Positions 528 to 62,889 of a stretch of DNA of 64,000 bases are shown here, piece after piece. This DNA is from a virus. The stretch covers positions 8,609 to 72,608 of the IMG/VR virus record IMGVR_UViG_3300013102_000032. One strand, 5' to 3'. A model generated the notes under the pieces. It worked only from the letters and a program-made list of their open reading frames with translations. It was not told the origin of the DNA and did no database searches. The translations under genes and the position numbers were made by a program. The first letter of the stretch is position 1; every line of letters starts with the position of its first letter.

Positions 528-671
528 ATGGATTGGTTTACAAGTATTAAAAAGTTCTATCCTAAGTATTGGGATAAGAAAATGGTTGGAGATGCTGTTG
601 TTGCAAAGAAAATAACAGAAGAACAATATTTTGAGATAGTTGGAGAAGAATACGTTTCTCCTACTGTATAA
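528..671 (+). CDS. XkdX-family small phage protein (not in ORF track)
   Basis: MDWFTSIKKFYPKYWDKKMVGDAVVAKKITEEQYFEIVGEEYVSPTV, 47 aa; typical XkdX pattern (W..IK.FY...V...KIT.E.Y.EI.G..Y). Confidence 0.8.
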   Translation: MDWFTSIKKFYPKYWDKKMVGDAVVAKKITEEQYFEIVGEEYVSPTV

Positions 672-685
672 AATATAGATTTTAT
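668..685. repeat. Palindromic junction element ATAAAA-TATAGA-TTTTAT(C)
   Basis: Copy of the WTAAAA-N6-TTTTAW family; contains the XkdX stop codon. Confidence 0.7.
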
Positions 686-813
686 CAAGAAATAAATGTC
701 AGATAAATACAAAAACATAGTTAAAATGCAACAAATAATTAACACATCACTCTCCTACTTTGATACTTTAGACACATATTATAGAGTGATAAAAATACTA
801 GGAGGAAATAATA

Positions 814-4249: not shown

Positions 4250-7090
4250 TTGTTTATTGATATAAATTATAGTAAAGAGCTAAAAAAAGCTAAATTACAT
4301 TTAAGCAAACCTAGCAAGCAGATTATATCTCATATAAGCGAAAGAAGAGATGGCGAGCTTTCAGCAAAGCTAGGAAATATAAACGAACTTAATTTTTCTA
4401 TTCCATATACTGTTGAAGAAAATGGTAAATTAGTTCATAATAAACATGTTGATATGATAAAAGAAAAGATGCTCATAAAGATGTCTTTTAACAATACATA
4501 CGAATGGTTCATAGTTGAATCCATAAAAGAGAATGGTGATGATGAAACTTTATTCAATGTTCAATGTTTCTCATTAGGATTCGAACTGACTCACAAGAGA
4601 GTGTTGCAGTTGAATTATGAGTCAGTGAATGCAACTAGTTTGCTGAACGATTTGCTAAGCGTTTCTACATGGAAGATAAAAGAAGTTGATCCTAAATTCG
4701 ATGCGATGTTTCGTTCTTTTGATTTCTCAAACACTAATAGATTAGATTGTATAATACAAGCCAGTGAAACATTTGGTGCTTTAATAGAATGGGACACTAT
4801 AAACAAAAAGATATCATTTGTTAAATTCGAAGCGGATGAAGGAGAAATAAGTACTAGAGGTCAATTTAAAGGGTTGACCGCTAATTATGGCAAGCTATTA
4901 CGCTCCGTAGAAAAAGATAGAGTTTCTAACGAACTTACTACTAGACTATATGTTTATGGTAGTGAAGAATTAGGTATACATAGTGTAAATCCTACAGGAC
5001 AAGGATATCTAGAAGATTTTTCATTCTTTATGTATCCGTTTGAACGCAACGAAAGTAAGCAAACGATTAAGAGCAGTCATTATATGTCAGATGAATTATG
5101 TCACGCAATATTAGATTTCCAAGAATTGCTATTATCTGTTTCGGAAAGCATAAGAAGTAATATGGATAGCCAAGTATTAAAATCTGCAGAAGTAGCAAAT
5201 GAAAAACAAGTCTTAACTACTTTAGAACTAGAGATGGATACAATTCTAAATAAACTAGACGTTGCTAAGTCTACTGAGGATGAGTCTTTAATAACGCAAT
5301 TAGAAGGTGATAGAAGTGCTAAGCAAGCACAGATTGACTCTCAGAGAGCAGTAGTAACCTTAAAGACATCTGAGCTAAACTCTATAAAGATGGCTTTAGA
5401 GAATATACATCAACAATTAAATGAGGATAGCAACTTTACTCAAGAATTACAAGATGAGCTTAATTTCTACGTATTAGAAAAAGAGTGGAGAGACGACAGA
5501 TACATAGATGTTAAAGAGTTGTATGACGATGGTGTGAAAAAATTCAAAGAACTTAGAGAGCCTAATGTAGTTCTATCTATTGATATGGAGAACTTCTTAA
5601 ACATACTTGAAGAGCAGTTTTATTGGGATAAGTTGGTTCTCGGAGATTTGATTAAGATTAAATATACAGAAATGAATTTAGAGTATATGGCTAAAATCAT
5701 AGAGATTAAATACAACTTTGATGACAATAGTATCAGTTTGACAATTGCTAATACTACTAAAATTGGTTCAGATATAGAACGTTTAAGAGATTTGCTATAT
5801 AAAACAGAAAACGCATCAACATTAATACAGAACAACAAACATAAGTGGGATAAAGTAGGATTTGTTGAAGATGAAGTTTACAAACTAATCAACGATACTC
5901 ACGATGCTAACAAGCGTGAAATTACAGCAGGAGTAGATAATGAAATAACAATAGGCAAGAGAGGTATTATTGCTAGAAGTCCATCAAACCCTAACGATGT
6001 AGTTATTATACAAAGTGGTATTATTGCATTGTCTAAAACCAATGGAGACAAGTGGGAAACCGCTCTTACTGCAGATGGTGTTATTGCGGATAGACTTGTC
6101 GGAAATGTTTTGATTGGTAGAAATTTAATAATGACAAATAGTAGTGGTCATTTTTACTTTGATGACACTGGTATGAGAGTAAAGACTAATCAGTTCATAC
6201 TCGAATCTGAAACAGAGACAGAAACGTTTGATGTTATTAAATCGAAAATAGATATGTCGGCAGGTAAAATAGCTTTGATTGTAGGCAGTGATAATAAACT
6301 AAATGGTGAAGCTATTGCTTCATCTATAGTAGTTAGTCCTAATGCAATAGACTTAATGAGTCAAAACATCAACTTCACATCTAGAGGATTAGACTTGGCT
6401 TCATCTATAAAGATAAGTCCACAAGCAATAGATTTAATAAGTGAAAGTATAAATTTAACAGGCAAAGTTACATTTTCATCTTTTGATCCTTCTACTAAAA
6501 ATTCATTAGAAACTGTGACAGGATGGAAAGCAACTAATAAGACTACTATTGATGGTGGCAAGATAGAAACAAATACTATTGGTGCTAATCAAATTAAAAC
6601 CAATGAACTTATCGTTGGAGTAAATATAGCTATGGGTGCTAATGCGGTTATAGATTGGAATCAAGTTGGAAGTAAGCCTTTTATTCCTTCTAATGCTAGC
6701 GACATCGGTGCATTATCTAGTAGCTCTCCTATGCTAACATACATAACTGGAACAGGTATATATACAGGAACTCTTTCTGCAGATAAAATTATCGGTGGAA
6801 CTATCACAGGTATAACTATAAATGTTACAACAGATTTAGATGTAGGTAATAACATATATCTGGGCAGAAATACGAATGCCACAAAAATGATTAAGTTTAA
6901 CAGTAGTGCAACGATATATTCTGAAAACTCATCATCTCTAAGTGTATCTGCATTAACCTTCTCTGTTCGAGATGGAGATGTAAGATTGGGAAGTAATGGA
7001 TATTCTGTAGCATTATATGGAACTGTAGATTTATCTACAGCTAGTTCGGTATCATGGGGTTCACATGCCCCTGTAGCAAAATGGGGGTAA
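4250..7090 (+). CDS. Phage tail spike/baseplate hub (prophage tail endopeptidase-like) protein
   Basis: 946 aa; TRLYVYG motif, central coiled coil, ITAG/TADGVIAD and beta-helix-like C-terminal repeats typical of siphophage Tal proteins. Confidence 0.75.
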   Translation: MFIDINYSKELKKAKLHLSKPSKQIISHISERRDGELSAKLGNINELNFSIPYTVEENGKLVHNKHVDMIKEKMLIKMSFNNTYEWFIVESIKENGDDETLFNVQCFSLGFELTHKRVLQLNYESVNATSLLNDLLSVSTWKIKEVDPKFDAMFRSFDFSNTNRLDCIIQASETFGALIEWDTINKKISFVKFEADEGEISTRGQFKGLTANYGKLLRSVEKDRVSNELTTRLYVYGSEELGIHSVNPTGQGYLEDFSFFMYPFERNESKQTIKSSHYMSDELCHAILDFQELLLSVSESIRSNMDSQVLKSAEVANEKQVLTTLELEMDTILNKLDVAKSTEDESLITQLEGDRSAKQAQIDSQRAVVTLKTSELNSIKMALENIHQQLNEDSNFTQELQDELNFYVLEKEWRDDRYIDVKELYDDGVKKFKELREPNVVLSIDMENFLNILEEQFYWDKLVLGDLIKIKYTEMNLEYMAKIIEIKYNFDDNSISLTIANTTKIGSDIERLRDLLYKTENASTLIQNNKHKWDKVGFVEDEVYKLINDTHDANKREITAGVDNEITIGKRGIIARSPSNPNDVVIIQSGIIALSKTNGDKWETALTADGVIADRLVGNVLIGRNLIMTNSSGHFYFDDTGMRVKTNQFILESETETETFDVIKSKIDMSAGKIALIVGSDNKLNGEAIASSIVVSPNAIDLMSQNINFTSRGLDLASSIKISPQAIDLISESINLTGKVTFSSFDPSTKNSLETVTGWKATNKTTIDGGKIETNTIGANQIKTNELIVGVNIAMGANAVIDWNQVGSKPFIPSNASDIGALSSSSPMLTYITGTGIYTGTLSADKIIGGTITGITINVTTDLDVGNNIYLGRNTNATKMIKFNSSATIYSENSSSLSVSALTFSVRDGDVRLGSNGYSVALYGTVDLSTASSVSWGSHAPVAKWG

Positions 7091-8441: not shown

Positions 8442-9281
8442 GTGGATATTATGACGAATGCAAAAGATATATTAATAGCTTTAGATGACGGTCATGGAAT
8501 GGAGACGAAAGGCAAGAGAACGCCTGCTATACCAGAGCTAGATAATAGAGTTATTCGTGAAAACGAATTTAACAGAGAGGTTGTTAGATTAACTAATATT
8601 GAACTGAGTCGATGTGGATTCAGAACATTATTGACCGCTCCAACAGATATCGACACACCTCTATCGGATCGTGTAAAGCTAGCAAATGGCAAAAAGGTAA
8701 ACTTGTTTATAAGCTTTCACTACAACGCTAATACAGGTTCTTTTATAACAAATAAAGCAGAGGGATTCTCGGCTCATGTTTTCAAGACAGTTGGAGATAG
8801 TGCTGATTTCGGTAATATACTTTTGAATAATTTATCCAAAGGAACTTATCAAAAAAATAGAGGATTAGTAAAGCAGGATTTATATGTTACTAGAGAAACA
8901 ACTATGCCGTCAGTATTGATAGAATTTGGTTTTATGGATAATAAAAGAGAGGCAATGCTTATGATAGATGCAAACTTTCAAAAGGAATGTGCTATTGAAG
9001 TTGCTAAATCCGTATGTGAATTTTATAAAGTTACATATGTAGCAGAAGTCCAAAAAAAAGAAGATAAGGAGGAGGTAGCAGTATCTAATTTATTCAATCC
9101 AGAATCTTCAAGTGTTGTAGATTCTGTTTCTAATGTCTTATCTGTTTTAGAACAATTCGATAACGGATTGCATAAACAATGGAGACAGCGTTTGACTGAC
9201 AATAAGCTGACAGATTCTCAAGCTATAGGATTGCTATATGTGGCTGTAGAGCGTGGATTAATACAATTAAAGAAGCAATAA
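8442..9281 (+). CDS. Endolysin, N-acetylmuramoyl-L-alanine amidase (Amidase_3)
   Basis: IALDDGHG, E in RENEFN, SFHYNA, SVLIEFGFMDN zinc/catalytic motifs; true start probably ATG 8451. Confidence 0.92.
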   Translation: MDIMTNAKDILIALDDGHGMETKGKRTPAIPELDNRVIRENEFNREVVRLTNIELSRCGFRTLLTAPTDIDTPLSDRVKLANGKKVNLFISFHYNANTGSFITNKAEGFSAHVFKTVGDSADFGNILLNNLSKGTYQKNRGLVKQDLYVTRETTMPSVLIEFGFMDNKREAMLMIDANFQKECAIEVAKSVCEFYKVTYVAEVQKKEDKEEVAVSNLFNPESSSVVDSVSNVLSVLEQFDNGLHKQWRQRLTDNKLTDSQAIGLLYVAVERGLIQLKKQ

Positions 9282-9357
9282 CATGTATGCTTTCTAATAT
9301 GTATAAACAAGGGATGAAAGGGGTTGCAAGCAACAATAGGTAGGAGGAAATTAAGTT

Positions 9358-9687
9358 ATGGATTTCTTGAGAATATTATTAGAAGACACTAGTTGGTTGA
9401 CTGCCGTCTCAGCGATAGCAGGTTCTATTATAACATATTTAATAACAAAAGTTAATAAAGATAAAGACGTTTCTATTAGCGACAGAATGCAATTGTCCAA
9501 AGATCAATATCAACTTATATCTGAACTGAGAGAAATGATGCAGGAGCAGAGAGTTGAAATAGAAAAACTTAGAGATGAAATGAAACAATTACAAGATGTC
9601 AATGTTAGTTTGATTGTTGAGAATAGAGAGCTACGAATAAAAATTACAGAATTAAATTCAAGATTATCTAAATTTGATTCACAATAA
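9358..9687 (+). CDS. Putative holin/antiholin (N-terminal TM + coiled coil)
   Basis: One hydrophobic segment then heptad repeats; lysis cassette position. Confidence 0.55.
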   Translation: MDFLRILLEDTSWLTAVSAIAGSIITYLITKVNKDKDVSISDRMQLSKDQYQLISELREMMQEQRVEIEKLRDEMKQLQDVNVSLIVENRELRIKITELNSRLSKFDSQ

Positions 9688-9720
9688 TTTCAAAATAAAA
9701 AACAAAGGGGAATACATAAT

Positions 9721-10059
9721 ATGGAATCTTTACAAGTTGAAATAGTAAATCTAGTTATCTTAATTGTTTCTGGATTAATGGGTATAGCATCTGGATACGT
9801 AACTTCTTATTTGAAGAAAAAAGGTGTAGTAGCACAACTAGAAGGCAATAAAGAGATTGTTAGAATAGTTGTAAATGCTGTTGACCAGATGTATAAGAAT
9901 CTAAAAGGCGAAGAGAAATTAGATTTAGCAAAATTAGAAGTACTTAAAATGGCAAAATCTAAGGGTTTAAATATCAGTGAGAAAGAGTTAGATTTATTGA
10001 TCGAATCTACTGTAAAAGAAATGAATAAGTCAATAAAGAATGAAATTAAAAATAAATAA
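9721..10059 (+). CDS. Phage holin, LL-H family
   Basis: N-terminal TM; VNAVDQMY...GEEKLDLA...IESTVKEM pattern. Confidence 0.8.
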   Translation: MESLQVEIVNLVILIVSGLMGIASGYVTSYLKKKGVVAQLEGNKEIVRIVVNAVDQMYKNLKGEEKLDLAKLEVLKMAKSKGLNISEKELDLLIESTVKEMNKSIKNEIKNK

Positions 10060-10065
10060 AATATT

Positions 10066-10095
10066 ACTCCCACAAATTAATGTGGGAGTTTTTTT
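10066..10095 (+). terminator. Rho-independent terminator
   Basis: ACTCCCACA-aattaa-TGTGGGAGT followed by T-tract. Confidence 0.85.
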
Positions 10096-10106
10096 GCGTT
10101 TGTATG

Positions 10107-10135
10107 TTGACTTGCTTTATTTATTAATGTATACT
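10107..10135 (+). promoter_or_regulatory. sigmaA-type promoter
   Basis: TTGACT-17bp-TATACT. Confidence 0.7.
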
Positions 10136-10160
10136 CAAAACATATAAAACAAAAGGAGAT

Positions 10161-10799
10161 TTGAAAATGAGTATAAATGAAGAGAAAAAGTTTCTATATT
10201 CGATTCTTGAAAATATCACAGAGGAAAGAAAAAAATTAACTAATGCTTATTTGGATATCGTTAATAAAATTACAGAGCTAGAAAAAGAGTCTAGAAGTTA
10301 TAGAGAACAGAGTGAGACGAAAGACGCTGTAGAAAAAGTTCAGAATATAGAATTTAAAAAAGAAGCTAAGACACCAAGCATAATGATTGAAGAGATAGTA
10401 GAGGCTGAGCCTGTTGAGGTTACTAAGAAAGAAGATGTGAGAACCTTAGCAGAAATAATAGAAGAACATAATAGAATGCGTGGAGAATCAGACGATAAGC
10501 CAGATGAATTATCAGAGAGTAAAATACCAAAAGAAGAAATAGAAAGAGAAAAAGATAAACTACCTAGAAAGTCTCCGTATTTGAATATTGATAAAGTGAA
10601 TGGATTGATATCTCAGATATTAAAAGAAAAGGGCTCTCCTATGCATGTAAAGGAGATATTTGCTAAATTAAATTCTATGCTAGATAACGATGTTAATATT
10701 CAGAATCTACGCAATAACATTCTTCCTAGAGTGTGTAAGAGTAATCCTAAAATAGAAAGAGCATTGCGTGGTTATTATCAATATAATTATAATGGATAA
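10161..10799 (+). CDS. Rok-like DNA-binding protein (N-terminal coiled coil, C-terminal winged helix)
   Basis: C-terminus ILKEKGSPMHVKEI...NLRNNILPR...KIERALRGYYQY resembles the Bacillus Rok wHTH; N-terminal helical oligomerisation segment. Confidence 0.6.
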   Translation: MKMSINEEKKFLYSILENITEERKKLTNAYLDIVNKITELEKESRSYREQSETKDAVEKVQNIEFKKEAKTPSIMIEEIVEAEPVEVTKKEDVRTLAEIIEEHNRMRGESDDKPDELSESKIPKEEIEREKDKLPRKSPYLNIDKVNGLISQILKEKGSPMHVKEIFAKLNSMLDNDVNIQNLRNNILPRVCKSNPKIERALRGYYQYNYNG

Positions 10800-10813
10800 A
10801 ATTACACTTTTAT
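10796..10813. repeat. Palindromic junction element (G)ATAAAA-TTACAC-TTTTAT(C)
   Basis: Contains the stop codon of the Rok-like gene. Confidence 0.7.
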
Positions 10814-10822
10814 CTATAAAGT

Positions 10823-10864
10823 TACCCCCTCTAAATTACCTTATTAGAGGGGGTTTTATTTTTT
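10823..10864. terminator. Terminator hairpin between convergent genes
   Basis: ACCCCCTCTAA...TTAGAGGGGGT followed by T-rich tail on +. Confidence 0.8.
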
Positions 10865-10869
10865 GTATT

Positions 10870-11484
10870 CTATGTATTTTTGTCCTTCTTAACCCTTTTC
10901 TTAACCGTAGTAGGCTTTTTAGGTTTCTTAGGCTTTTCTTCTTTAGGTTCTCGCATTGCAACAATATCAGACCAAACTGGCTTATCCCACTGAATAAGAT
11001 CGTGCTCTATCAGACAAGTCAAGCAAACTGCAAAACTATCACTCTCGTCATCATTCCTAAAAGTTATATCATTATATTTTGTTTTTATTGAATTTGCTAC
11101 GTCTTCTTTCGTAGCATTGCCGTGGACTATTTTTAATTTTACTTCTTTTGGTGCATATAAGAATTGTGGCACATCCCATAATAGATGTTGTATTACTCCT
11201 GTAGCTTTCGCTATTGCTTGAGTCTCCATAGGGAATCGGCTAAACATCCTCTCAATAGACACGACATAAGGAGGATATTTTTCTATGATGTCGCTCATCC
11301 ATAAAGATATCATATGAAGCTTTAACGCATTTAGGTGTAGGTTTTTATGTTCTTTCGTAGCGTATATTTTCTCAGTATTAAAACTGTCAACAAAGACAAA
11401 TTCTTTCTTTTCTAGATCGTATATGGTTACTCCTGTATCCTTTAAGGATATGTCTAAACCATATAGAAATTTACCTTTAGTCAT
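10870..11484 (-). CDS. Holliday junction resolvase, RuvC-like
   Basis: GLDISLKDTG, SIERMF, GNATKEDV, DDESDS acidic motifs; Lys-rich tail. Confidence 0.85.
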   Translation of the reverse strand: MTKGKFLYGLDISLKDTGVTIYDLEKKEFVFVDSFNTEKIYATKEHKNLHLNALKLHMISLWMSDIIEKYPPYVVSIERMFSRFPMETQAIAKATGVIQHLLWDVPQFLYAPKEVKLKIVHGNATKEDVANSIKTKYNDITFRNDDESDSFAVCLTCLIEHDLIQWDKPVWSDIVAMREPKEEKPKKPKKPTTVKKRVKKDKNT

Positions 11485-11487
11485 TTC

Positions 11488-11661
11488 TTACTTTTTATCT
11501 TCTTTTGCTTTGTTGTTGTGGCATGAGAGATGAAATAATTCCTCATCTTTTTCTACGAATAAATTATCTTCATATATGTTTTCTTCACAATAAGGGCATA
11601 CACATAATACTTCTTTTTTAACGAATGTGTGGATGCGGTTCTTTACATTTTTATCTTTCAT
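11488..11661 (-). CDS. Small zinc-finger protein (not in ORF track)
   Basis: 57 aa, CPYC...HLSC; GAGG RBS and its own promoter upstream. Confidence 0.65.
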   Translation of the reverse strand: MKDKNVKNRIHTFVKKEVLCVCPYCEENIYEDNLFVEKDEELFHLSCHNNKAKEDKK

Positions 11662-11721
11662 AATCAAAATCCTCTCTATAAACGCAAATAAACTAGGCAG
11701 TAATTTCTACCACCTAGATTT

Positions 11722-11750
11722 ATTATATCATAATCTTTTGCTAATGTCAA
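11722..11750 (-). promoter_or_regulatory. sigmaA-type promoter
   Basis: TTGACA-17-TATAAT, TG extended. Confidence 0.75.
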
Positions 11751-25024: not shown

Positions 25025-25042
25025 ATAAAATTCCTATTTTAT
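25025..25042. repeat. Palindromic junction element ATAAAA-TTCCTA-TTTTAT(C)
   Basis: Directly upstream of the RBS of 24545..25009. Confidence 0.7.
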
Positions 25043-26976: not shown

Positions 26977-27007
26977 TACATCATCTCCAATTCATAAAAT
27001 TCAGTTT

Positions 27008-27238
27008 TTATCTAATTGTCATTCTTTCAATGTGAAAAGGATAAGTACCTTCTGAGTATTCTGCACAAGTTTCACAATCGAAACAATTAACTTTAAAGCC
27101 TAAAGGTTTTAGCTTTTCGTTAATGTAGCTTTTTTCTTCTTCGGTTATGATTCGTTTAATACTTCCTTCAACAGTACAATTACTCTTTTCACTCATAGCT
27201 TCATCTAGAAAGCCTTGCAAAGCACTATCTAATTTCAT
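27008..27238 (-). CDS. Hypothetical protein (cassette-like)
   Basis: Stop TAA inside junction element; Cys cluster. Confidence 0.6.
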   Translation of the reverse strand: MKLDSALQGFLDEAMSEKSNCTVEGSIKRIITEEEKSYINEKLKPLGFKVNCFDCETCAEYSEGTYPFHIERMTIR

Positions 27239-27267
27239 ATGTCCACCCCATTCATAAAATTGAGTTT

Positions 27268-27414
27268 TTATACATTTGTGTCTTTTATTCTAATTTTCAA
27301 TATATCCAATGTATCTATAACTCCTTGTGCGAATCCTTCTCCCCATGCACCATCATAAGGGTCAACATCAATTAATTCTAGCAACTGTTTTCGTTGTTCT
27401 TCTGTAATCTGCAT
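27268..27414 (-). CDS. Small hypothetical protein (not in ORF track)
   Basis: MQITEEQRKQLLELIDVDPYDGAWGEGFAQGVIDTLDILKIRIKDTNV; GGGTGA RBS; stop inside element. Confidence 0.65.
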   Translation of the reverse strand: MQITEEQRKQLLELIDVDPYDGAWGEGFAQGVIDTLDILKIRIKDTNV

Positions 27415-27442
27415 ATTATCACCCTTTCATAAAAGTAAACTT

Positions 27443-27592
27443 TTATCTATCATAATCCTTTACGATTACTTCTGCTTCATCAAGCCATTCACTTATATCG
27501 CCATATGAATCGTGAGGAATATCGCCATGCGACCTTAAATCATCGACTTCATTTCTAATATTGTTGATTAATTTTAATAATTCACCTATCAT
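27443..27592 (-). CDS. Small acidic protein (not in ORF track)
   Basis: MIGELLKLINNIRNEVDDLRSHGDIPHDSYGDISEWLDEAEVIVKDYDR; GGAGGG RBS; stop inside element. Confidence 0.65.
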   Translation of the reverse strand: MIGELLKLINNIRNEVDDLRSHGDIPHDSYGDISEWLDEAEVIVKDYDR

Positions 27593-27623
27593 ATTGTCAC
27601 CCTCCATAAAAGTAAATTTTTAT

Positions 27624-27854: not shown

Positions 27855-27877
27855 TCCTGTTTAAAATTAAGATTTTA

Positions 27878-28546
27878 TCAATGTGCAGGTACGAATTTAT
27901 TACGGTTTAACTCTTCTATTTCCGCTTTCAATCTAGCTACTTCTTCATAATGCTCTTTGATTTCCCATAAGTGAGGTTCAATTGTAGTCTTTGCTGAATT
28001 GAAATATCCTGCATATCGTGGATATCTAATTCTTCCTTCTTTGAATAATGGGATGAAATGCTTTTCAGTTTCCATAGCTTGTCTAAGCTTTTTCTCTGGC
28101 GTAGCATCTCGTAGCGTTCCGAAATTGTGCTTTCTGTCAGAAGTCTTCAATAATAAAGCTCTTACATCTAATAAAATAGGCTGTAGATAAGCTACCATAT
28201 TCTCATCTATCTTATAGTCAATTCCTTCTTTTTTAGTAACCAAGTCCACCATAACTGCAACATTGCTATTAAATTTATCTTCAATCATTCGATTAGTTAC
28301 TCCGTAGATATCTTCTGGTGCATCGTGCAATAACATTCCAGTAAGAATATCTTGGTTTCTTATTCCATGATTGAATAAATCTTGCGTGGTGGCTACGAGA
28401 TGATAGTAATAGTGAGTGCCGTTATGCCTTGAGAATCCTTTTTCCGTACACATCTCTTCTATCATCCAATCCAAAGCTCTTAGTGAATCATCATACCCTA
28501 AATTAGATAATGACCTTTCTAAATGTCTAACTAAACTTTCACTCAT
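27878..28546 (-). CDS. RelA/SpoT-type HD hydrolase (small alarmone hydrolase/Mesh1-like)
   Basis: RHNGTHYYYHL, LLHDAPED, VDLVTK, LLKTSDRKHN. Confidence 0.8.
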   Translation of the reverse strand: MSESLVRHLERSLSNLGYDDSLRALDWMIEEMCTEKGFSRHNGTHYYYHLVATTQDLFNHGIRNQDILTGMLLHDAPEDIYGVTNRMIEDKFNSNVAVMVDLVTKKEGIDYKIDENMVAYLQPILLDVRALLLKTSDRKHNFGTLRDATPEKKLRQAMETEKHFIPLFKEGRIRYPRYAGYFNSAKTTIEPHLWEIKEHYEEVARLKAEIEELNRNKFVPAH

Positions 28547-36969: not shown

Positions 36970-36987
36970 ATAAAAGAGTCGTTTTAT
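36970..36987. repeat. Palindromic junction element ATAAAA-GAGTCG-TTTTAT(C)
   Basis: Intergenic, between gmk and accessory genes. Confidence 0.7.
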
Positions 36988-51988: not shown

Positions 51989-52249
51989 CTAATCTTTTTT
52001 CATTACAATTTCTAATCTATATCCTAATGCTTCTGCTAATTTATATAACGTTGAAAATGAAGGAATGTCTACACCGTTCTCAATTCTTGAAATAGTCTTT
52101 TGTGCCACAGTTGATAGTTCTGATAGTTTTCTTTGAGATATACCTTTTTCTGTTCTTATATCTATGATTTCACCAACAAGTTCAAGTTTTGCGTATAGTT
52201 CGCCATCAGTGTTTTTTAAAGCTTCTTTGATTTCTTCAAAAGTGCTCAT
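51989..52249 (-). CDS. XRE-family HTH protein (HigA-like)
   Basis: IRTEKGISQRKLSELSTVAQKTISRIENG...TLYKLAEALG; start reassigned after AAGGAG. Confidence 0.85.
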   Translation of the reverse strand: MSTFEEIKEALKNTDGELYAKLELVGEIIDIRTEKGISQRKLSELSTVAQKTISRIENGVDIPSFSTLYKLAEALGYRLEIVMKKD

Positions 52250-52296: not shown

Positions 52297-52314
52297 ATAA
52301 AATTGATGTTTTAT
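52297..52314. repeat. Palindromic junction element (G)ATAAAA-TTGATG-TTTTAT(C)
   Basis: Perfect 7-bp arms upstream of the XRE gene. Confidence 0.7.
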
Positions 52315-52379: not shown

Positions 52380-52667
52380 TCAACCAATATGTAAATCCCA
52401 ATAATCATACGCATCTTCGATTAATTTAACCAAATCTTTATCTGGTTCACTATACCATATTCCATAATCGACAAATAATCTATGATAGAATATTGTAGCC
52501 GACCTTCTATAACTTCCCTTGCGGATATAAGTCTCACCATTACCCATACGACAGAAGTAATAATCCTTCCATCTAAACCAAGTTTCACCATTTCTCCCTA
52601 ATACTTCTTCGTGAGGCAGATATGTCATTAGCCTTACGATTCCACTATAGTCTAGCTTCATTGCCAT
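52380..52667 (-). CDS. Hypothetical protein
   Basis: ORF with GGAG RBS. Confidence 0.55.
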   Translation of the reverse strand: MAMKLDYSGIVRLMTYLPHEEVLGRNGETWFRWKDYYFCRMGNGETYIRKGSYRRSATIFYHRLFVDYGIWYSEPDKDLVKLIEDAYDYWDLHIG

Positions 52668-53032: not shown

Positions 53033-54805
53033 TTAATTTTCATCTTCGGATAATTGAAAGCCTTCTAGTATCTTATTCTCTTCCATATCTATATAAAAAT
53101 AAATGTCAGTATCTCTAAGTCTATATAAACCTACAATACCAACATTATCATATCCTACTTCATCGCCATTCCAATCCGATGACCATAGCAAATCTTTATT
53201 AAATTCTAATACAATTGTCATAAATTTGCTTCCTCATCAAGTGTTTCAGCATTGTCTTTCATGTATTTGGACAACTTTTTGTATCCATCTGTATTTATAT
53301 CTTCTGAAAACCCTCTGAAACCAACTCTTGCAGGATATACATTTGTTATTTCTGTTACTTGACCACCTTTGCCATCTGGACACCTTACCTCTTCCACAAC
53401 TAAAGCCCATCCAAACGCATGTAATGTTGTATTTATAAACCAAAATAATCCTGTGTCTCTAAACTCTTGCCATGATTTTTCTTCCATCATATTTTTCACT
53501 CCTTATTCATATCCTACAATCTCTGTTTTGATCTTTGGATTCATCTGCCTTGCGGTATATCCTATACTATTACAAACATCGCAATCGCTATTTAAAGGTT
53601 GTAAATCTTCTGCCCATCCGCTATCTGGAAGACCTCTAGGATACATGTTTATAATTTTGGTAGTAAATCCAAAACCTTGACACTTAGGGCATTCAAATTT
53701 ATTTATACCCTTCTTTTTCTTAATAATCTCTTCTATTTGTATATTTCCATATTGCTCCATCAAAATCTCTAGGTCACGTATCCTCATGATATACCTCCTA
53801 TGTGAATCTTAAATACAATCTTTCTTCGTTACGGTACACTTGTACATCTCCTATATCAACTACTGTTTCAATGTATTTTCCACCATAATCTTCGCCAATA
53901 TCAGTTCGAATTTCAATATCTCCGCTTAAAAACATTTCTTTAAGAGCCTTCTTCAACTGTTCTTCAAAATTCAATATCAACACCTCTTATTTTATAGAAT
54001 TTTACTAATCTTTAATAGTATCTCTTTTCAATTTTAATATAATCATATTCAACTTCATCTTCTTTTGAAAGTTTAACATGTAGTGCAATTTCTGTTTCAT
54101 TTGGATAAAAATCGAAAGGAATAGACTCTTCTACAATTCCTTTTCCGATAAATTTATTTCGCCAATGTCCACCAATAAGCATGTCTATAAATATATTTCC
54201 GTAATAACAGATTACAAATTTCTCCTTCAAATTTATTCCTCCTAGTTAAAATGAGAATTTTATTCATCTATTCTTAATTCTAATGCTTGCCTCCAACAGT
54301 TATAACATTGTAAAGATTGTGCTTGCCATCCATGCACATCTTCCTTTTCACACAATCCTTCAAAATCATCAAGTCCAAAGTTCATTGGACACCCTGCTAA
54401 AATTGATAAGTCACCATTTTTAATATCTTTCTCATTATCTAAACAGTTCTGTAAATGTTCAATATCATGAGTTTTAATAGTCTCGCAATAATTTAGAATA
54501 ACATCTTTTCCTGTTTTCATATCTTCACCCCTTATTAAAATAGAAGTTTTATCAATTTATCGTCTTATGTATTCTTGTCTTCCACTAGCGTAGTATTTTA
54601 CTTCTTTATACATAGGGTCATCTAGTTTTTCTACTCTCAAAACTATATTATCTTTATGCCTGTCTCTATTAACAATTGCTTGACAAGGGTTCTCTTTGGT
54701 GCAAGTGCATTTTGATTTATTCACATACCCTTGCCCACCTTCTTTTGCATAGCAGAATTTATTTTCTTTTACTATTTTTTGTATCATATCAAGTATCTCG
54801 CTCAT
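53033..54805 (-). CDS. Run of seven small hypothetical genes (53033-53221, 53218-53499, 53503-53787, 53798-53983, 54012-54230, 54260-54520, 54557-54805)
   Basis: Tightly packed co-oriented ORFs with RBSs; 53503-53787 has a CxxCxGxG zinc motif. Confidence 0.6.
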
Positions 54806-55608
54806 AGCTTTCCTCCTTTATAAAACTCGCATTTTATCTATTAACTTTTACTAATTTTTCACTAGATTTTGTTATCGCCTTATGGCTCAAGTTAGAATTA
54901 TGCACTTTTTCCCATAGAATTTCATGCTCAACATACTGTGGTATATCACATTCAGAAACTAGCACAACATTATTTTTACTCATTTCTTTGCACCAATTCC
55001 AAAAATCTTCATGATTAAAATCATCACTATCATATCTGGTACTTTTTTGAGTTGTATTTGCATATGGTGGGTCACAATATAATACAGCATTTTTAATATC
55101 AGAATAGTCACGATAATCTTTGCAAGTAAATTCAACATCTATTAAATTACTCATCTGTTTTATGGTTTTTTCGATACTACCCTCTATATGATTATCATAT
55201 CTACTTCTCGCAAATCCTCCCCACCATTTGCCACCATATGAATAGTGAAATCCAACTAATCCCACAAGATACTTTGGTAAATTGTTCTGATTATTTTTAA
55301 CATAAGTATAATACTCTTTTGTAAATTGTAATTTATTTGGTTGCCAACCGCTCTGTAATTCTTTCCACATTTCTATTAAGAATGAATGACTGTCATTAGC
55401 AATTCTATTCTTTGTATTGTCAATTTTGTCAATAATATTGCACCCACCACAAAACAAGTCTATAAAAATCGTTTTATCATCTTTGATATAGGATTTTATT
55501 ATAGGTGTAATATGTTTTGAGAGTCTAATTTTACCACCCAAATACCACAAATATATCAACCTCTTCTAATATTATTATTTATTACAATAGATAAAATGGA
55601 AACTTTAT
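54246..55608. repeat. Four consecutive junction elements at 54246-54263, 54535-54552, 54820-54837, 55591-55608
   Basis: Spacers TGAGAA, TAGAAG, CTCGCA, TGGAAA; three contain the upstream stop codon; last has one arm mismatch. Confidence 0.8.
54834..55559 (-). CDS. DNA adenine methyltransferase (Dam/D12 class)
   Basis: YLGGK, DLFCGG, AND, YCDPPY. Confidence 0.9.
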   Translation of the reverse strand: MIYLWYLGGKIRLSKHITPIIKSYIKDDKTIFIDLFCGGCNIIDKIDNTKNRIANDSHSFLIEMWKELQSGWQPNKLQFTKEYYTYVKNNQNNLPKYLVGLVGFHYSYGGKWWGGFARSRYDNHIEGSIEKTIKQMSNLIDVEFTCKDYRDYSDIKNAVLYCDPPYANTTQKSTRYDSDDFNHEDFWNWCKEMSKNNVVLVSECDIPQYVEHEILWEKVHNSNLSHKAITKSSEKLVKVNR

Positions 55609-55865
55609 CTATCTTTATAATACTCTCTCTCCAACTCTAAGACTGCTTGATACTGCTTATTTTGTAACTTTCTTAAATCTTGCGAGTCTGCATAGTGACT
55701 ATGGAATGTAACTCTGCCTAATGTTTCTTCAGTAGCTCCATATGCATATTGATAGCTATATTTATGATGTTCATCCTCGCATTTCGCATATTCTTCGCAC
55801 AATATATGTTCCATATAGTCATCGCTATATTCTTTTACTTCATTATCGCAAATTGGACACTTCAT
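55605..55865 (-). CDS. Hypothetical zinc-binding protein
   Basis: CPIC...C..H; stop inside junction element. Confidence 0.55.
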   Translation of the reverse strand: MKCPICDNEVKEYSDDYMEHILCEEYAKCEDEHHKYSYQYAYGATEETLGRVTFHSHYADSQDLRKLQNKQYQAVLELEREYYKDR

Positions 55866-57795: not shown

Positions 57796-60136
57796 TTACT
57801 TCTCATACTTTTGTAATGCTATTAAAATATTAGACTTGGCGACTTGTAGCATAGCTCTTTTCTCTGTATATCCAGTCATTTCAAGTTCTATATTAACTTC
57901 TTCGAGCTGTTTAGTTAGTTCGTCTTTTATATTCATAGTGTTCATTGTCAATCACCCTTTTCTAAAGAATCCTTTTGGTCGTTCTTCTTTGTTAGGTCTT
58001 TTATTCTGTTCTTTCTGTTGTATTGCAACCATCATGTCAAAGATCAAAAACTCCCTTGTCTTCAAGTCTAGGTTGAGACTTTCGAATTGCTCTATCTTTT
58101 TATTTCCAAATTTCAATAAGTGTCTCAAAACCATAACTTCCGTCTCTGTTAAATGATTGTTATTCATATTGCTTCTTCTTTCATCTTTACCGCATGATAG
58201 AAGTCTGTCATTGATGGAGATTTGATTTCTAATATTGTCATCTTCAATCCTCCACCTTCTAAGTAATCTATAGCATCTCTAGGGTTCAAGCTTTCAAATC
58301 CAGACATTACTGTAAATCCGTCACTTAATAATTTGAATGACATCGATTGTCTACCGTTATCTCTAATTAAAGTATATCTGTGCAAGCTATTAGAATAACT
58401 TGGTCTAATACACGTAATAACGCTACCTGCTTTTAGATTTTTAATTGCTTCGTCAATAGTTTTACTCATTTGAATCACTCCTTTTTCCTTTATAAAAGGG
58501 AAATTTTATTCATTGTCATTAACAAATTTAACGATTGTTCTACCTTCGTGACCATGAATATGTTGTACAGATTGTATATTTGGATATATGTTATGAGAGA
58601 TAACATATGACTGTGACCATTCATGAATACATTTACCACTAGGCATAATAACTCCTTCTGCAACAATTCCAGTACCGCTTACTCCGCTAAAATCTTCATT
58701 TCTTTGTAGATAATATTCACGTAATCTATCTTTACTTTTAGGTTTTAATAAAACTAATTTTGTATCTTTATTATCATTACATACAAACTCTTTTACTTGT
58801 TCAATACTATCGTAGAAGGATAATGTTTTTATAGCACTAGTCCATTCTAGTAATGTTATATGCGATTTAAGAATTACACCTAAAGCCAAAGTATTATCAT
58901 GTTTGTCAATAATTTTAAATTGCTCCAATGTTTTCGCTCCTTTTATAAAATAGATTTTTTATCCATTACCAATCGTATATTACGCTACCGAATTTAGTAT
59001 CAATAAGATATTGTCTAATTGTTTGATATTTCTTTAATTTTGCTTCATAACCATCTTCTTCTACGTCTAAATACTCTTCTCTGTCTGCAAGAATATCTAA
59101 AACGCAATCTAAATCAATAGTCTCTCGTCTTTCACAATACATGTCGTCAGTAAGAAAAGACTTTAGAGGGTCTTCAACCCATGTTATAAAATCAATGTGA
59201 TTTCGCATATTGTCTGGTATTGCTAATAAATCATCTATAGTTTTAGGATTGTCATATTTTTTTAGAAACTTATATACCTCTTTTGTATCAATACCTTGTG
59301 AAACTGCAAATTCTTTTAATAGTTCAACACTCATATTATCGTCTCCTATTCTTCTTAATAAAAGTAAGATTTTAACTAGCGTTGCCAATTAGCACTCCAA
59401 CCAATTTCTACCCACATATTCTTGTAATTGCCCCACTCATTACTTCCACCCACATCGACCTTTTTCACTTCTTCGATGATTTCAGCATATTCTAGCCATC
59501 TCAATTCTCCATCAAAGGTCTTTGGAATAAAGAGAAATTTTGTCACCTTTCTTCTATCTCCTTCTCTAAGCTTCTTGAATGTGTATCTCATGTTTTTCAC
59601 TCCTTTTAAAAACAAAATTTTAATTATAAATCCAATGCTGTTTGTAACAATTTATACACCCAAGATAATCATAAAATCCATTAATATTATATAGATTGTC
59701 ATATTCATGTGCTCCCATCTTACAATGGAAAGGTCTTTTTAAATATGGCAATACTTTACCGTGATCTTTTCTAAGTTCGGTATTTTTCTTTTTCATTTAT
59801 TCAGTCTCCCTACCATATATCTTATTTAATCTTTCATACTCTTCTCGCTCCATATCACCTATGTTTTTATAGGTATTATACATATAGCCTATATCAACCT
59901 TTTCTCCGCAGTAACAAATTAGAATTGTGTTCTCTGGTTTTACATAAGGGATATACACCCTTCCATCACGCTTACAGTGAGGACAAGTATGCTCTTTAAT
60001 CATTCCATTCATGTAATTACCTCGTCTTCTATATAATCCATGCTAATAATTTAGATATTGCAAAGATTAACGTACCTGTACCAATTATTGCTAATACACC
60101 AATCAGTCCTACTAATAAAGTTGCTAATTCAAACAT
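57796..60136 (-). CDS. Run of small hypothetical genes (57796-57945, 57952-58167, 58164-58478, 58506-58928, 58966-59334, 59376-59591, 59620-59796, 59797-60012 and a TM peptide starting at 60136)
   Basis: Co-oriented ORFs, most with RBSs; several read manually below the 60-aa track cutoff. Confidence 0.55.
58492..59623. repeat. Four consecutive junction elements at 58492-58509, 58945-58962, 59358-59375, 59606-59623
   Basis: Spacers GGGAAA, TAGATT, GTAAGA, ACAAAA; each between a stop and the next RBS. Confidence 0.8.
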
Positions 60137-60342
60137 TTTATTTCCTCCTTTAAAACAAATTTCATTTATTCTGTTCTATAACTTGTTTTGAAATTTTATC
60201 ACTTAATTTACCGAAATGTACCATATCTCTATGAAATATAAAAGACTTCTTATCTTGATTATTTAAAGCAAATACTAGAGTCAACGCTTCATTTTCTGTC
60301 ATCTCTAAAGTTACTTCCCTCACATCAATTCCTCCTTATCTA

Positions 60343-62889
60343 TTATTTTCGACACTTATAACATATAGGCTCTTGACCATATCCTAGCTCCCTATATGGC
60401 TTATCTTCTCCGCATTCAACACACATCTCTTTTGGCTCATATTTTAAGTAGGTTCTACTTTTTTCATCTTTAAGCATATCTACATCTGACCTCTTCTTTA
60501 GCCATTCCCATGTGAAAAATTCTGCCTTCCTAAATAAAGGAAAGTCTAATTTGTCATAGATGTTAATAATCTCATCGAAACTCAGCTCTCCATTTTTGCT
60601 CTCTTTTAATTTCGAGTAAAGCAGTTTTGCAACTCGTTCGCCATCTTCTCTAAACATAGCTCCACCTCTTTAATTAAAATTCAAAGTTATCTATTTTATT
60701 TTCTAGTTCTTCAATATCATTTCTTAAATCTTCAATTTCTCTATGTAATTCATCTAGTTCATTTTCTACTTCAATAGCTTTGTCGTCAATGTATTCAAAT
60801 ACCGAATTTAACTCCGCAAACATGTTTGGAGATAAGTCGTCTCTTTTATTCTCTAAAAACGTTTCTAATTCACTAGCTATATTTGATTTACTCAACCTAA
60901 CATTCGTCATATACATTCTCCTTTTATTTTAATAGTAAATTCCGTAACCAATCTGATGATTTAATCCATTTCCCCAACCGTTAATAGGTTCTGCATCAAT
61001 CTTAAATTGTTCATATTTGAAGTCCTCTGGCATACTATATGAAATAAACCACATGAATAAGTCAAACACACTTTCTGAGTCAAAGTAAGCTTCTTGTACA
61101 ATGAATCTATCAATTTCATCACGCTCACCATCAACACGAGAGAAATCAAATCCATGTTCTAATAGAATTTCAACTGCTTCTTCTGAGATGCTAGATTGCT
61201 CGTATTCAGTTAGCAACTGTCTCCATTGCTCTCCGCTACGCCATTCGTCTAACTGCTTAATATCAGTATAGTTAGCGTTATGATTAAGTTGAAGACCAAT
61301 CTTTTTACAAGTATCTTTATATGCTTGTCGCATTTCTTCGCCAGAGTAGTTTGATGATACGTAGTATATTTCTGATTGGCTATGTCCATCGCCACTCCAA
61401 TCGCCCATAATTACACTAAACAACTTTTTTGTCATATAATTCTCTCCTTTTATAATAGATAGTAGATAATAGATAAAAACATTATTTTATCTATTTATTT
61501 TTCATGAATTTTACCTTCACGCATTAATAATTCATGATAATCGCTTACTCCTTTGAATTTTCCAACCACATATCCAATAAACAATGTAGTAAAGCTAATC
61601 ATTACAGTAAAAAATATACTCATATTATCATCTCCTTATCTTTCTTGAATACCTAAAACAATCTTATCGATGTTTGGATTAATCTTTTTGACTCCGTGAC
61701 ATGTTACACCAACTAATCCTTCTCTAATATTAGTAGTATACTGTCTACGTGATGTATCATATCCTTTTATCGCCATATACATATATATTGCAAAGTCAAT
61801 CTCGTCAGCAGTTAAAGTTAAATCCATTATTTATCACTCTCTTTCTTATCTTGGAGTAAAGGAAATTCTATTTCTTGTACATCATAATACCTATCGTATG
61901 TCACGTTAATAACTGCACCCACCTTAAGTACGTCATATTGACTTTCTGATATATCTAAAACTACTTCATGACCATTTTTTTCAAGAGTTACTTTGTTGTA
62001 ACTCCATCTTCCTACTTCTTCTATGTTCTTCTCTTTTACAATCATGTTATCAAACCTACCATATTCTTCACATCCTACTAATAATAGTATTAATGATGAA
62101 ATTATAAAAACAGATATCAACTTCTTCATGTTTATCGCTCCCCACTCTATTATTATATCATTATCTTTATCACTTGTCAATAGCTAGAATTAATTTTTTG
62201 GTTTAAACGTATATCTTCCAAAGAAATTCTTTCTAGACATCACAGGCTTACCATCTTTATACAAAGGAATCACATGAGACTTAATCGACTGACCGTTAAT
62301 CATTTCGTTTTCACCTTCATGCGTAGAGAGAGAATATATAAAAGGTGTATTATCTTTTCTCAAAAACTCAATTCTATCATCGAAAATGTTATTAGCAACC
62401 ATATACGTCCAACTAGCAACATCGTTGCCCTCTGACATCCATACCAACTCAGCCATTTGTCCAACTACAAAATTCATATTATTTCCCCTTTTCTCATCTA
62501 TTAGTTTTTGATTCTTTGATTAAATGTGAAATTGCACTAAATCCGAATATAAGCCAAACAGAAAGCATTATCCAAAACATAATCATATATTATCTCTCTT
62601 TCTTGATTTTACTTAAGAAGAATTTCTTAATCTTTTTAAAGGTAGCGACAACATCTAGTATTGCTCCGATAAATCCTAATAGCGTAAATACTGCAATGAC
62701 ATTAGATTTCTTTCGTACTATATTTAATGCTATCATGGCAGTTTCATCATTCGAATGCTCTTCTTCAAATTTCTTCATAGCTTCTTTAAACTTTTCGTTA
62801 CTAAAAGCTTCGTCTACGAATATAATTTTAACACCTGTTATAAAACCTACTGCTAACCATATTAGAAGTGCCAATCCAAACAAATTCAT
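60343..62889 (-). CDS. Run of small hypothetical genes (60343-60657, 60674-60916, 60929-61435, 61495-61623, 61636-61827, 62190-62477, 62590-62889)
   Basis: Co-oriented ORFs with RBSs; include a Zn-finger, an acidic coiled coil and TM proteins. Confidence 0.55.
61473..61490. repeat. Palindromic junction element (AATAG)ATAAAA-ACATTA-TTTTAT(CTATT)
   Basis: Arms extend to 11 bp here. Confidence 0.75.
61827..62129 (-). CDS. Lipoprotein
   Basis: MKK-hydrophobic-LVGC; start reassigned because the ORF-track TTG is the promoter -35. Confidence 0.75.
   Translation of the reverse strand: MKKLISVFIISSLILLLVGCEEYGRFDNMIVKEKNIEEVGRWSYNKVTLEKNGHEVVLDISESQYDVLKVGAVINVTYDRYYDVQEIEFPLLQDKKESDK
62152..62180 (-). 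promoter_or_regulatory. sigmaA-type promoter
   Basis: TTGACA-17-TATAAT with ATAATGA. Confidence 0.8.

Follow-up and report, generated by a model that had tools for sequence, protein, structure and literature searches.

The window analysed here, a stretch of 64,000 nucleotides (nt), comprises bases 8609–72608 of a 72,608-bp viral contig (IMG/VR record IMGVR_UViG_3300013102_000032) with a CheckV completeness of 44%. Genes on the plus strand extend to ~10.8 kb and encode tail proteins, including a minor tail protein (4250–7090). The remainder is on the minus strand and contains genes for a DnaE-type polymerase, nicotinamide phosphoribosyltransferase (NAMPT), DNA and RNA ligases, NrdE and two topoisomerase II subunits. 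The window also carries a family of short palindromes, WTAAAA-N6-TTTTAW, in which two inverted arms flank a 6-bp centre. In accessory gene arrays, these palindromes behave as fixed joints around which gene cassettes turn over.

The contig polymerase is 67–72% identical to its homologues in PJN02, FADO, PK-3, Kirov, 2S-4, Thrax1/3, PBC2 and vB_BcoS-136, which are Bacillus siphoviruses with genomes of ~165 kb, and ~29% identical to the polymerase of phage Sophrita. A megablast search with window positions 26000–34000 returned only short matches (73–88% identity) and no close relative of the contig, and a protein-seeded scan of IMG/VR found no relative of it. Therefore, nucleotide-level breakpoints were studied only in the related phages. 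Gene calls and ortholog clusters were produced by heuristic scripts written for this analysis. A scan of IMG/VR with the motif pattern gave 27 loci.

The window contains 18 exact copies of the motif, whereas 100 dinucleotide shuffles averaged 0.45 copies and never exceeded 3. Across the whole contig the N6 spacing accounts for 18 copies, and each other spacing from N0 to N15 for 0–1. The narrower form ATAAAA-N6-TTTTAT has 13 exact, 7 one-mismatch and 20 two-mismatch copies; at the other spacings between N2 and N11 the same arms give 0–1 exact, 0–6 one-mismatch and 22–46 two-mismatch copies. The motif is thus sharp, with two-mismatch copies at background level. A preliminary description of this DNA had listed 19 copies and proposed the comparisons with other spacings and with shuffled DNA. 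Both comparisons confirm the enrichment, and 18 of the listed copies are exact and lie where it placed them, but the copy at 55591 has one mismatch (right arm CTTTAT).

The same spacing is preferred in other phages. Copies at N6 number 23 in Kirov, 23 in Sophrita, 23 in PBC2, 16 in BcoS-136, 31 in PJN02 and 33 in SPbeta, with 0–5 at other spacings. Exact ATAAAA-N6-TTTTAT is found 30 times in FADO, 26 times in PK-3 and 21 times in Thrax3, with none in a reversed-pattern control. In total, the N6-specific enrichment is present in 11 phage genomes, and de novo palindrome discovery ranks the motif first in each of the contig, PJN02 and SPbeta. Lysinibacillus phage LC76P1 has one motif copy and no other enriched palindrome.

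A logo of 133 sites from six genomes, oriented by transcription, displays a T at position −3 (80% of sites) and an A at +20 (87%) besides the invariant arms. The full element is a 24-bp palindrome, T-N2-ATAAAA-N6-TTTTAT-N2-A. The arms of 6–7 bp described previously are conserved, but the symmetric conservation reaches 9 bp, of which 7 bases are specified; beyond the arms each position carries less than 0.3 bit, and the logo reveals no other fixed flanking element. There is no covariation outside the arms or within the centre (29 sites vs 36.0 expected for the −1/+18 pair and 47 vs 46.9 for 6/11). The simplest reading of such an element would be a double-stranded DNA site recognised by a symmetric protein, and the palindromes are probably read by a phage protein that binds as a dimer.

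Fifteen of the 18 exact copies overlap the upstream stop codon or sit at most 4 nt from it. Twelve of the 16 minus-strand copies lie 9–17 nt before the next start codon, directly 5′ of a GGAGG-type ribosome-binding site, with 2–5 nt between the palindrome and the Shine-Dalgarno sequence (Table 1). The link to the stop codon is tighter than that to the start codon: between the palindrome and the next gene, relatives may have a terminator or a complete promoter. The preliminary description had most copies contain or abut the upstream stop codon and precede the next ribosome-binding site, between single promoterless open reading frames (ORFs) inside operons, which is borne out. It is also right that the sites are not promoter operators, as the 14 consensus sigma-A promoters of the window lie elsewhere. 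The proposed placement at accessory-gene boundaries is correct for the copies in arrays, but those at 668, 10796, 25025, 36970 and 52297 are solitary and found at the edges of core modules. Nine of ten cassette ORFs have no PHROG match and nine of ten no Pfam match; the single Pfam match is below its cut-off. Array A (27861 to 26994) is downstream of a consensus promoter at 28605 and an HD-domain gene.

Table 1 Palindromes and promoters of the window, and tail-tube palindromes of relatives. The window copies (19 joints and solitary sites) are named by their first position in the window, and their neighbours are from our own gene calls.
Position	Feature	Centre	Neighbours	Same centre elsewhere
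668..685	palindrome, solitary	TATAGA (plus strand)	tail operon; overlaps stop of ORF 528–671	
10796..10813	palindrome, solitary	TTACAC	overlaps stop of ORF 10161–10799, end of plus-strand late block; then terminator-like hairpin and convergent RuvC-like gene	
25025..25042	palindrome, solitary	TAGGAA (sense)	after terminator-like hairpin, 15 nt before ORF 24545–25009	
26994..27011	palindrome, array A	ACTGAA (sense)	ORF 27008–27238 / ORF 26758–26976	PJN02, PK-3, Sophrita
27254..27271	palindrome, array A	ACTCAA (sense)	ORF 27268–27414 / ORF 27008–27238	Kirov, PBC2, BcoS-136, Sophrita; flanks unrelated
27429..27446	palindrome, array A	GTTTAC (sense)	ORF 27443–27607 / ORF 27268–27414	5 other phages
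27606..27623	palindrome, array A	ATTTAC (sense)	ORF 27624–27854 / ORF 27443–27607	TTTTAC at same rank in three relatives
27861..27878	palindrome, array A	TCTTAA (sense)	HD-domain gene 27878–28546 / ORF 27624–27854	6 other phages
36970..36987	palindrome, solitary	CGACTC (sense)	terminator-like hairpin (36992–37031) / ORF 36677–36934	
52297..52314	palindrome, solitary	CATCAA (sense)	ORF 52380–52667 / ORF 51989–52249	
54246..54263	palindrome, array B	TTCTCA (sense)	ORF 54260–54520 / ORF 54012–54230	PBC2
54535..54552	palindrome, array B	CTTCTA (sense)	ORF 54557–54805 / ORF 54260–54520	PJN02, FADO
54820..54837	palindrome, array B	TGCGAG (sense)	D12 adenine methyltransferase gene 54834–55559 / ORF 54557–54805	PJN02, PK-3, BcoS-136; flanks unrelated
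55591..55608	palindrome, array B, one mismatch (CTTTAT on plus strand)	TTTCCA (sense)	ORF 55605–55865 / methyltransferase gene	PJN02, PK-3
58492..58509	palindrome, array C	TTTCCC (sense)	ORF 58506–58928 / ORF 58164–58478	Kirov, PBC2
58945..58962	palindrome, array C	AATCTA (sense)	ORF 58966–59388 / ORF 58506–58928	
59358..59375	palindrome, array C	TCTTAC (sense)	ORF 59376–59615 / ORF 58966–59388	PBC2, PJN02, FADO, PK-3
59606..59623	palindrome, array C	TTTTGT (sense)	ORF 59620–59796 / ORF 59376–59615	
61473..61490	palindrome, joint	TAATGT (sense)	ORF 61495–61623 / ORF 60929–61435	PBC2
62180	promoter, first hexamer, minus strand			
57717	promoter, first hexamer, minus strand			
53029	promoter, first hexamer, minus strand			
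50377	promoter, first hexamer, minus strand			
49601	promoter, first hexamer, minus strand			
45114	promoter, first hexamer, minus strand			
39393	promoter, first hexamer, minus strand			
38471	promoter, first hexamer, minus strand			
37872	promoter, first hexamer, minus strand			
33890	promoter, first hexamer, minus strand			
28605	promoter, first hexamer, minus strand			
25487	promoter, first hexamer, minus strand			
24540	promoter, first hexamer, minus strand			
21184	promoter, first hexamer, minus strand			
PJN02 41030	tail-tube palindrome			
Kirov 33767	tail-tube palindrome			
PBC2 132297	tail-tube palindrome			
Sophrita 129204	tail-tube palindrome			
BcoS-136 72274	tail-tube palindrome			
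FADO 101376	tail-tube palindrome			
PK-3 36113	tail-tube palindrome			

The solitary copies are 10–15 kb apart. Solitary core palindromes of the relatives (PJN02 28853–105092; Kirov 21895–108619) have a similar spacing of ~10–15 kb, with one interval of ~18–20 kb. Equivalent solitary sites in relatives precede the terminase genes, follow the tail-tube gene, lie within the tape-measure gene (in Kirov, Sophrita, PJN02 and PBC2) or close the late operon. Of 15 terminator-like sites in the window, none coincides with a palindrome, and two adjoin one (25025 and 36970).

No centre is repeated within the contig or within any of nine genomes. The earlier observation that the spacer is different at every copy therefore holds within a genome, but not between genomes: for 12 of the 19 copies in the window, the identical centre turns up in one or more of eight other phages, and the order is often kept. 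The 134 sites of six genomes have 97 distinct centres, 22 of which are common to two or more genomes, and identical inter-genome centre pairs number 61, compared to 5.6 ± 2.5 (maximum 16) in 1000 column shuffles. The series TCTTAA, [A/T]TTTAC, GTTTAC, ACTCAA, ACTGAA runs through the window (27861 down to 26994) and Sophrita, and in part through PBC2, Kirov, BcoS-136 and PJN02; TCTTAC, TTTCCC, TTTCCA, TGCGAG, CTTCTA form a second ordered series. The order of the centres is conserved across genera, and the ORFs between them are unrelated singletons.

The DNA around shared centres is mostly not shared. Flanks of same-centre array sites display no similarity in lax pairwise BLAST, and the flanks of core sites are 42–71% identical. 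A flank was counted as homologous at 70% identity or more over 120 nt, above a background that peaks at 64%. On this basis, neither flank is homologous in 157 of the 244 same-centre pairs in ten genomes, one is in 41 and both are in 46; none of the 37 pairs with a member in the contig has a homologous flank. Where the flanks of core sites are orthologous, 1–5 bases separate the centres, even between Kirov and PBC2. Because centres drift there, the identity of array centres does not reflect a general constraint on the centre, and points either to recent common descent of the joints or to selection for matching. An orientation of the centre relative to the strand was considered and rejected, as the raw excess of YY over RR (50 vs 22) is gone after removal of duplicates (29 vs 19, p=0.19).

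Turnover at the palindromes is clearest in the close trio PJN02, FADO and PK-3 (95–98% identity). Between 22 and 33% of the alignment-block ends in the trio are within 25 nt of a palindrome, mostly at 0–8 nt, compared to 1.4–1.5% of random positions. When PJN02 is compared with FADO and PK-3, breakpoints occur at 21 of 31 palindrome junctions and at 34 of 192 others (odds ratio 9.8, p=4e-8). Restriction to the 104–160 kb accessory region and to gaps of 20 nt or more leaves 18/25 palindrome junctions vs 14/51 others broken (p=4e-4). Junctions that carry a longer conserved promoter box are broken in one case of 11, vs 20 of 30 for palindromes, which speaks against the view that conservation of an intergenic sequence is sufficient in itself. 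Individual events in the trio include a 1.6-kb site-to-site deletion, a 365-nt insertion with a palindrome at each border, and replacements bounded by palindromes at both ends.

A D12 adenine methyltransferase gene occupies the slot between centres TTTCCA and TGCGAG in both the window and PJN02 (111173–111898), although the two proteins are only 24% identical over 70 residues. PK-3 carries the PJN02-type methyltransferase gene one slot further, between TGCGAG and CTTTTC. Homology in this example ends at the border of arm and centre, where identical 18-mers hide the exact crossover point.

SPbeta and phi3Ts (96.7% identity) provide a weaker replicate of the trio enrichment. On the SPbeta side, 14 of 35 palindrome junctions and 21 of 142 others are broken (p=0.0017; 14/35 vs 19/93 and p=0.04 for gaps of at least 20 nt). 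On the phi3Ts side, the counts are 11/29 and 25/143 (p=0.022), and p rises to 0.35 when gaps shorter than 20 nt are left out. In comparisons across genera, the gene pair is no longer adjacent in 133 of 171 motif-junction comparisons and 2028 of 3227 others, where the counts from genome pairs are not independent. The preliminary description had suggested testing whether gene gain and loss in relatives break at the sites. Breakpoints of gain, loss and replacement do lie within the palindrome or at its border, but half of the indels in close relatives are elsewhere and the enrichment is absent in one of the three clades. Contigs from the probable source metagenome contain three joints with sides of 20–29 nt (50379>60914, 53029>61428 and 58881>59353). 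Two start at the promoter consensus and one matches only 26 nt around the 59358 palindrome; none of them is evidence of excision.

Several known identities of the element were considered and rejected. The window contains 14 perfect or near-perfect sigma-A promoters on the minus strand between 21156 and 62180, which share TTGACA-N8/9-AATAATGA-TATAAT and none of which is at a palindrome; with no fixed −35/−10 partner in the logo either, the palindrome is not a sigma-A promoter. A promoter read by a phage-encoded sigma factor or RNA polymerase was discarded for lack of a Sigma70_r2 match in five relatives and of a YonO homologue. An extended hairpin was discarded on the grounds of absent covariation and weak folds. 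The palindrome is also not SPBRE, the operator of MrpR (YopR), a repressor of SPbeta that has a tyrosine-recombinase fold and no recombinase activity; in the available part of the report, all ten ChAP-seq peaks of MrpR are at SPBRE, a 15-bp motif (PMC10516654). The accessible text on its homologue SroF describes binding to a 24–26 bp operator as a monomer (bioRxiv 10.1101/2025.11.27.690993). The SPBRE sequence used here was inferred from the SPbeta genome upstream of the ten MrpR target genes. The box shared there, approximately ACAAAWAATATGTATA, is a different sequence, and a palindrome lies 20–100 bp upstream of it at only 3 of the 10 targets. The AATAATGA spacer box of the window promoters resembles this SPBRE box and may be the operator of an MrpR-like repressor of the lineage. 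Thus, the palindrome is not a promoter, terminator, stable RNA hairpin or SPBRE.

The product of the last gene in the late block (ORF 10161–10799, plus strand) has a weak C-terminal match to a Rok winged helix (22.9 bits, cut-off 27.6). The stop codon of this gene overlaps a palindrome in the window, PBC2, Kirov, PJN02, FADO and PK-3. The protein was rejected as the palindrome binder, given the Pfam match below the cut-off and homologues in only five of nine other genomes; none was found in Sophrita, BcoS-136, SPbeta or LC76P1.

Two readings fit the data, a Xer-type recombinase, which is our best guess, and a bound protein that makes its sites recombination hot spots. In the former, to which we assign a probability of about 0.42, the palindromes are a lineage-wide family that provides the joints of accessory arrays, and a Xer-type phage recombinase acts at them. 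Inside operons, each palindrome fills the gap that follows one gene's stop codon and precedes the ribosome-binding site of the next gene. In the accessory arrays, the palindromes would be the fixed joints at which small promoterless genes are gained, lost and replaced. Recombination would take place within the palindrome or at its border and leave it and its individual centre in place, with only the DNA on either side changed. The likeliest catalyst would be a YopP-like or YomM-like tyrosine recombinase, encoded outside the partial contig and acting mainly between same-centre sites of co-resident related phages. The data show the motif with its geometry, conservation and placement and its excess at homology breakpoints, whereas the binding of a protein, the identity of this putative enzyme and the role of the centre as an address are inferred. 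A more specific version, in which SPbeta-like and Tsamsa-like Bacillus phages share a system of 'addressed sockets' with identical arms, individual centres, a Xer-type recombinase and in-register exchange, is unlikely.

Candidates for the enzyme are available. The preliminary description had advised looking for tyrosine recombinases elsewhere in the genome, and the lineage does encode them (two to three in each of five complete relatives). SPbeta has three proteins with a tyrosine-recombinase fold, YomM in the tail module, YopP and YopR/MrpR, and homologues of these are present in 7/7 complete relatives. An alignment of the YomM-like protein of PJN02 with the solved structures of a XerC-like protein (4a8e) and XerA (5hxy) demonstrates that Arg, His-x-x-Arg, His and Tyr are kept. 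YopP is listed as a core gene of SPbeta-like phages, with no function given in the part of the paper available (PMC10516654). The accessible text of the Tsamsa genome paper mentions three tyrosine recombinases and neither promoters nor the motif. Queries with the SPbeta proteins detected no YopP or YopR homologue in LC76P1. If one of the three proteins reads the palindrome, YopP would fit the small phyletic pattern better than YomM.

A number of observations weigh against a recombinase. No PF00589 match is found in the 44%-complete contig, in agreement with the earlier statement that the window has no visible recombinase, and no recombinase has been linked to the palindrome by experiment or co-variation. 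The site-specific cassette system proposed in the preliminary description is therefore upheld in the turnover at joints and not in an enzyme tied to the sites. LC76P1 has a tyrosine recombinase beside its tape-measure gene but no palindrome family. Since all centres differ within each of nine genomes, classical tyrosine recombination between the copies of one genome would be blocked, and the shuffling of genes within a genome, also proposed earlier, is unlikely. Exchange between unlike centres also happens, as the methyltransferase cassette is flanked by different centres in PJN02 and PK-3. The arms of dif, lox and FRT are 11–13 bp long, and the specified arms of the palindrome are shorter. 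Core sites with orthologous flanks, one of them within the tape-measure gene, argue for another primary role, and the conservation of these sites shows that cassette exchange cannot be the sole one.

The genome comparisons contain further points of this kind. PBC2, Thrax3 and Kirov (84–90% identity) display no enrichment of breakpoints at palindromes (4/24 vs 33/230, p=0.76; 5/24 vs 38/230, p=0.57; 10/25 vs 56/246, p=0.08). Of the indels in the three pairs of the trio, 17 of 32, 12 of 23 and 12 of 23 lie clear of the palindromes. Two gene clusters (105 and 233) are found without adjacent palindromes in other genomes. In three laboratory hybrids of phi3Ts and SPbeta, the three switches that can be resolved to 39–55 nt contain no palindrome. 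The remaining switches are within identical tracts of 1.4, 4.9 and 18.2 kb, in which placement at palindromes is not possible; four of the six ends of these tracts coincide exactly with palindromes, which is a matter of natural history and not of the laboratory event. The hybrids thus give no sign of crossovers aimed at palindromes. A side observation from hybrids Hyb2 and Hyb3 concerns the mtbP methyltransferase segment (SPbeta 113663–115060), 1404 nt that are identical in phi3Ts and have a palindrome exactly at both borders, beyond which SPbeta and phi3Ts differ; the 18.2-kb tract also starts at a palindrome.

The other reading, which we hold to be slightly less probable than the recombinase, is that the palindrome is a binding site for a regulatory or architectural protein, such as a stoperator-like roadblock to read-through or a genome organiser, and that breakpoints are a by-product. 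The invariant 18–26 bp would be the sole remaining identity between diverged phages, or the bound protein would stall replication forks, and general or illegitimate recombination would resolve there. The core sites fit this alternative: their arms are kept while their centres drift, one is inside the tape-measure gene of relatives, and the solitary copies are 10–15 kb apart. After the tail-tube terminator of 7/7 relatives, the centre of the palindrome is itself a −35 hexamer (TTGAAA, TTGAAG or TTGACA) with an extended −10 element 17 nt downstream. This palindrome heads the operon with the YomM-like recombinase and tape-measure genes, and a protein bound to it would occlude the promoter; autoregulation at this site is speculation. 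The relatives look temperate or plasmid-like (they have MrpR, ParM and Rep homologues), the laboratory hybrids form by ordinary homologous recombination, SPbeta encodes a Sak4-like annealing protein, and stoperators are described, in the part of the source available, as numerous genome-wide repressor sites that stop elongation (PMC9283540). However, the longer promoter and operator elements are not break-prone (1/11 vs 20/30), and a binding site by itself does not readily account for the 157 of 244 same-centre pairs in which neither flank is related, as core centres drift. MrpR itself has all its reported peaks at a different sequence, and the centres have no orientation relative to transcription once duplicates are removed, unlike the asymmetric stoperators.

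It is improbable that the palindromes are passive punctuation, that is, a conserved intergenic signal without a recombination role that merely coincides with gene boundaries of variable regions. Such a coincidence would be aided by the high background of adjacency loss between genera (63–70% of non-motif junctions), and the absence of enrichment in PBC2, Thrax3 and Kirov and its fading on the phi3Ts side at larger gaps are in line with it. In the trio, however, the excess persists when region and gap class are matched, the block ends pile up within 8 nt of the palindrome, and same-centre sites have unrelated flanks.

An element acting in mRNA, for which a small AU hairpin 5′ of the ribosome-binding site would serve as a processing site, translational operator or stabiliser, is highly improbable: transcription of the copies within operons and their tight placement relative to stop and start codons would suit it, but 11 of 12 window copies fold at only 0 to −3.4 kcal/mol (the arm hairpin forms in 6 of 12 and the z-score is below −2 in 3 of 12), outer-arm variants (TTAAAA...TTTTAT) break pairing without compensation and no covariation extends the stem, the symmetric T(−3) and A(+20) flank unpaired positions, and some copies are before terminators, between convergent genes or within a coding region. 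The copy at 61473 (61467–61496) is the only one with arms that reach 11 bp (TAGATAAAA...TTTTATCTA), and as RNA it is the only stable one, at −9.2 kcal/mol and a z-score of −6.4.

The literature searched contains no paper that describes the motif in large Bacillus siphoviruses or SPbeta, and the palindrome combines features of several known systems. Integron cassette arrays are rows of single promoterless ORFs with an upstream promoter and a palindromic element beside the stop codon, and the palindrome arrays are alike. They differ in having no adjacent integrase, attI or Pc module, and what precedes array A is a normal consensus promoter with an HD-domain gene. The attC sites of integrons are imperfect palindromes of 57–141 bp, which are read as folded single strands and whose structure is conserved over sequence; the palindrome, unlike attC, is 18–24 bp long, conserved in sequence and a weak hairpin. 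The core sites of tyrosine recombinases (dif, pdif and lox) are similarly made of inverted arms around a centre of 6–8 bp, and the palindrome has N6 only and is symmetric to position 9. Heterospecific lox and FRT sites, man-made for recombinase-mediated cassette exchange, have the same arms and different centres that pair only with a like centre. If palindromes likewise paired only by like centre, exchange would stay in register, in keeping with the conserved order of the centres; unlike heterospecific lox and FRT sites, the palindromes are natural, and exchange between unlike centres has also occurred. In pdif sites, the arms are 11 bp, the XerC and XerD sides differ, and sites alternate in orientation. 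The available text on dif modules of Acinetobacter plasmids describes multiple inverted-arm sites with a 6-bp centre, adaptive accessory genes and a presumed Xer-type agent (PMC6449649), all of which resemble the system discussed here. Unlike pdif, the palindrome has symmetric 9-bp arms, resides in phages and has a centre for each site that is conserved across genera.

Stoperators depend on orientation. Those of Cluster A mycobacteriophages number some 20–30 per genome and, like the palindromes, occupy short intergenic spaces in long co-directional gene arrays of temperate phages; according to the part of the source consulted, they are asymmetric and bound by a monomeric repressor (PMC9283540), whereas the palindrome is symmetric and the known repressor site of the lineage is a different element. 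The promoter-early stem-loop (PeSL) cassettes of T4-type phages (Arbiol et al. 2010, PMC2839356) also involve short conserved intergenic repeats amid small non-essential genes, and the sections available explain insertions, deletions and replacements by recombination at these repeats. However, a PeSL as described there consists of a sigma-70-like promoter and a terminator stem-loop, and the palindrome is neither, has no G+C-rich stem and carries a unique centre at each site. SPBRE is found in the same phages and its reader has a tyrosine-recombinase fold, so this fold serves DNA recognition in the lineage; in the accessible text it is a long asymmetric promoter box read by a monomer (PMC10516654; bioRxiv 10.1101/2025.11.27.690993), unlike the palindrome.

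Two features of the gene content are separate from the palindromes. The NAMPT gene of the window (21870–23381, minus strand) has a copy in PJN02 that adjoins a ribose-phosphate pyrophosphokinase gene, a neighbourhood that suggests a phage NAD salvage module. In the PJN02 record, positions 8544–16940 are annotated with ParM-like, ParG-like, TrwB-like, Xer-family recombinase and replication-initiator genes, and this annotation suggests a plasmid-like prophage state for the PJN02 group.

Short conserved elements that delimit exchangeable genes are already known in the form of PeSLs, pdif modules and integrons. If the palindromes are true exchange sites, they would explain the renewal, across genus boundaries, of small accessory genes that probably serve host takeover and counter-defence. 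Addressed sockets, if they exist, would be a natural counterpart of recombinase-mediated cassette exchange, by which distant phages could trade anti-host genes without sequence homology. If the palindromes are instead the sites of a genome-wide regulator, they would constitute a second layer of control beside MrpR and SPBRE. The element is also present in SPbeta of Bacillus subtilis 168, and the question can be answered there.

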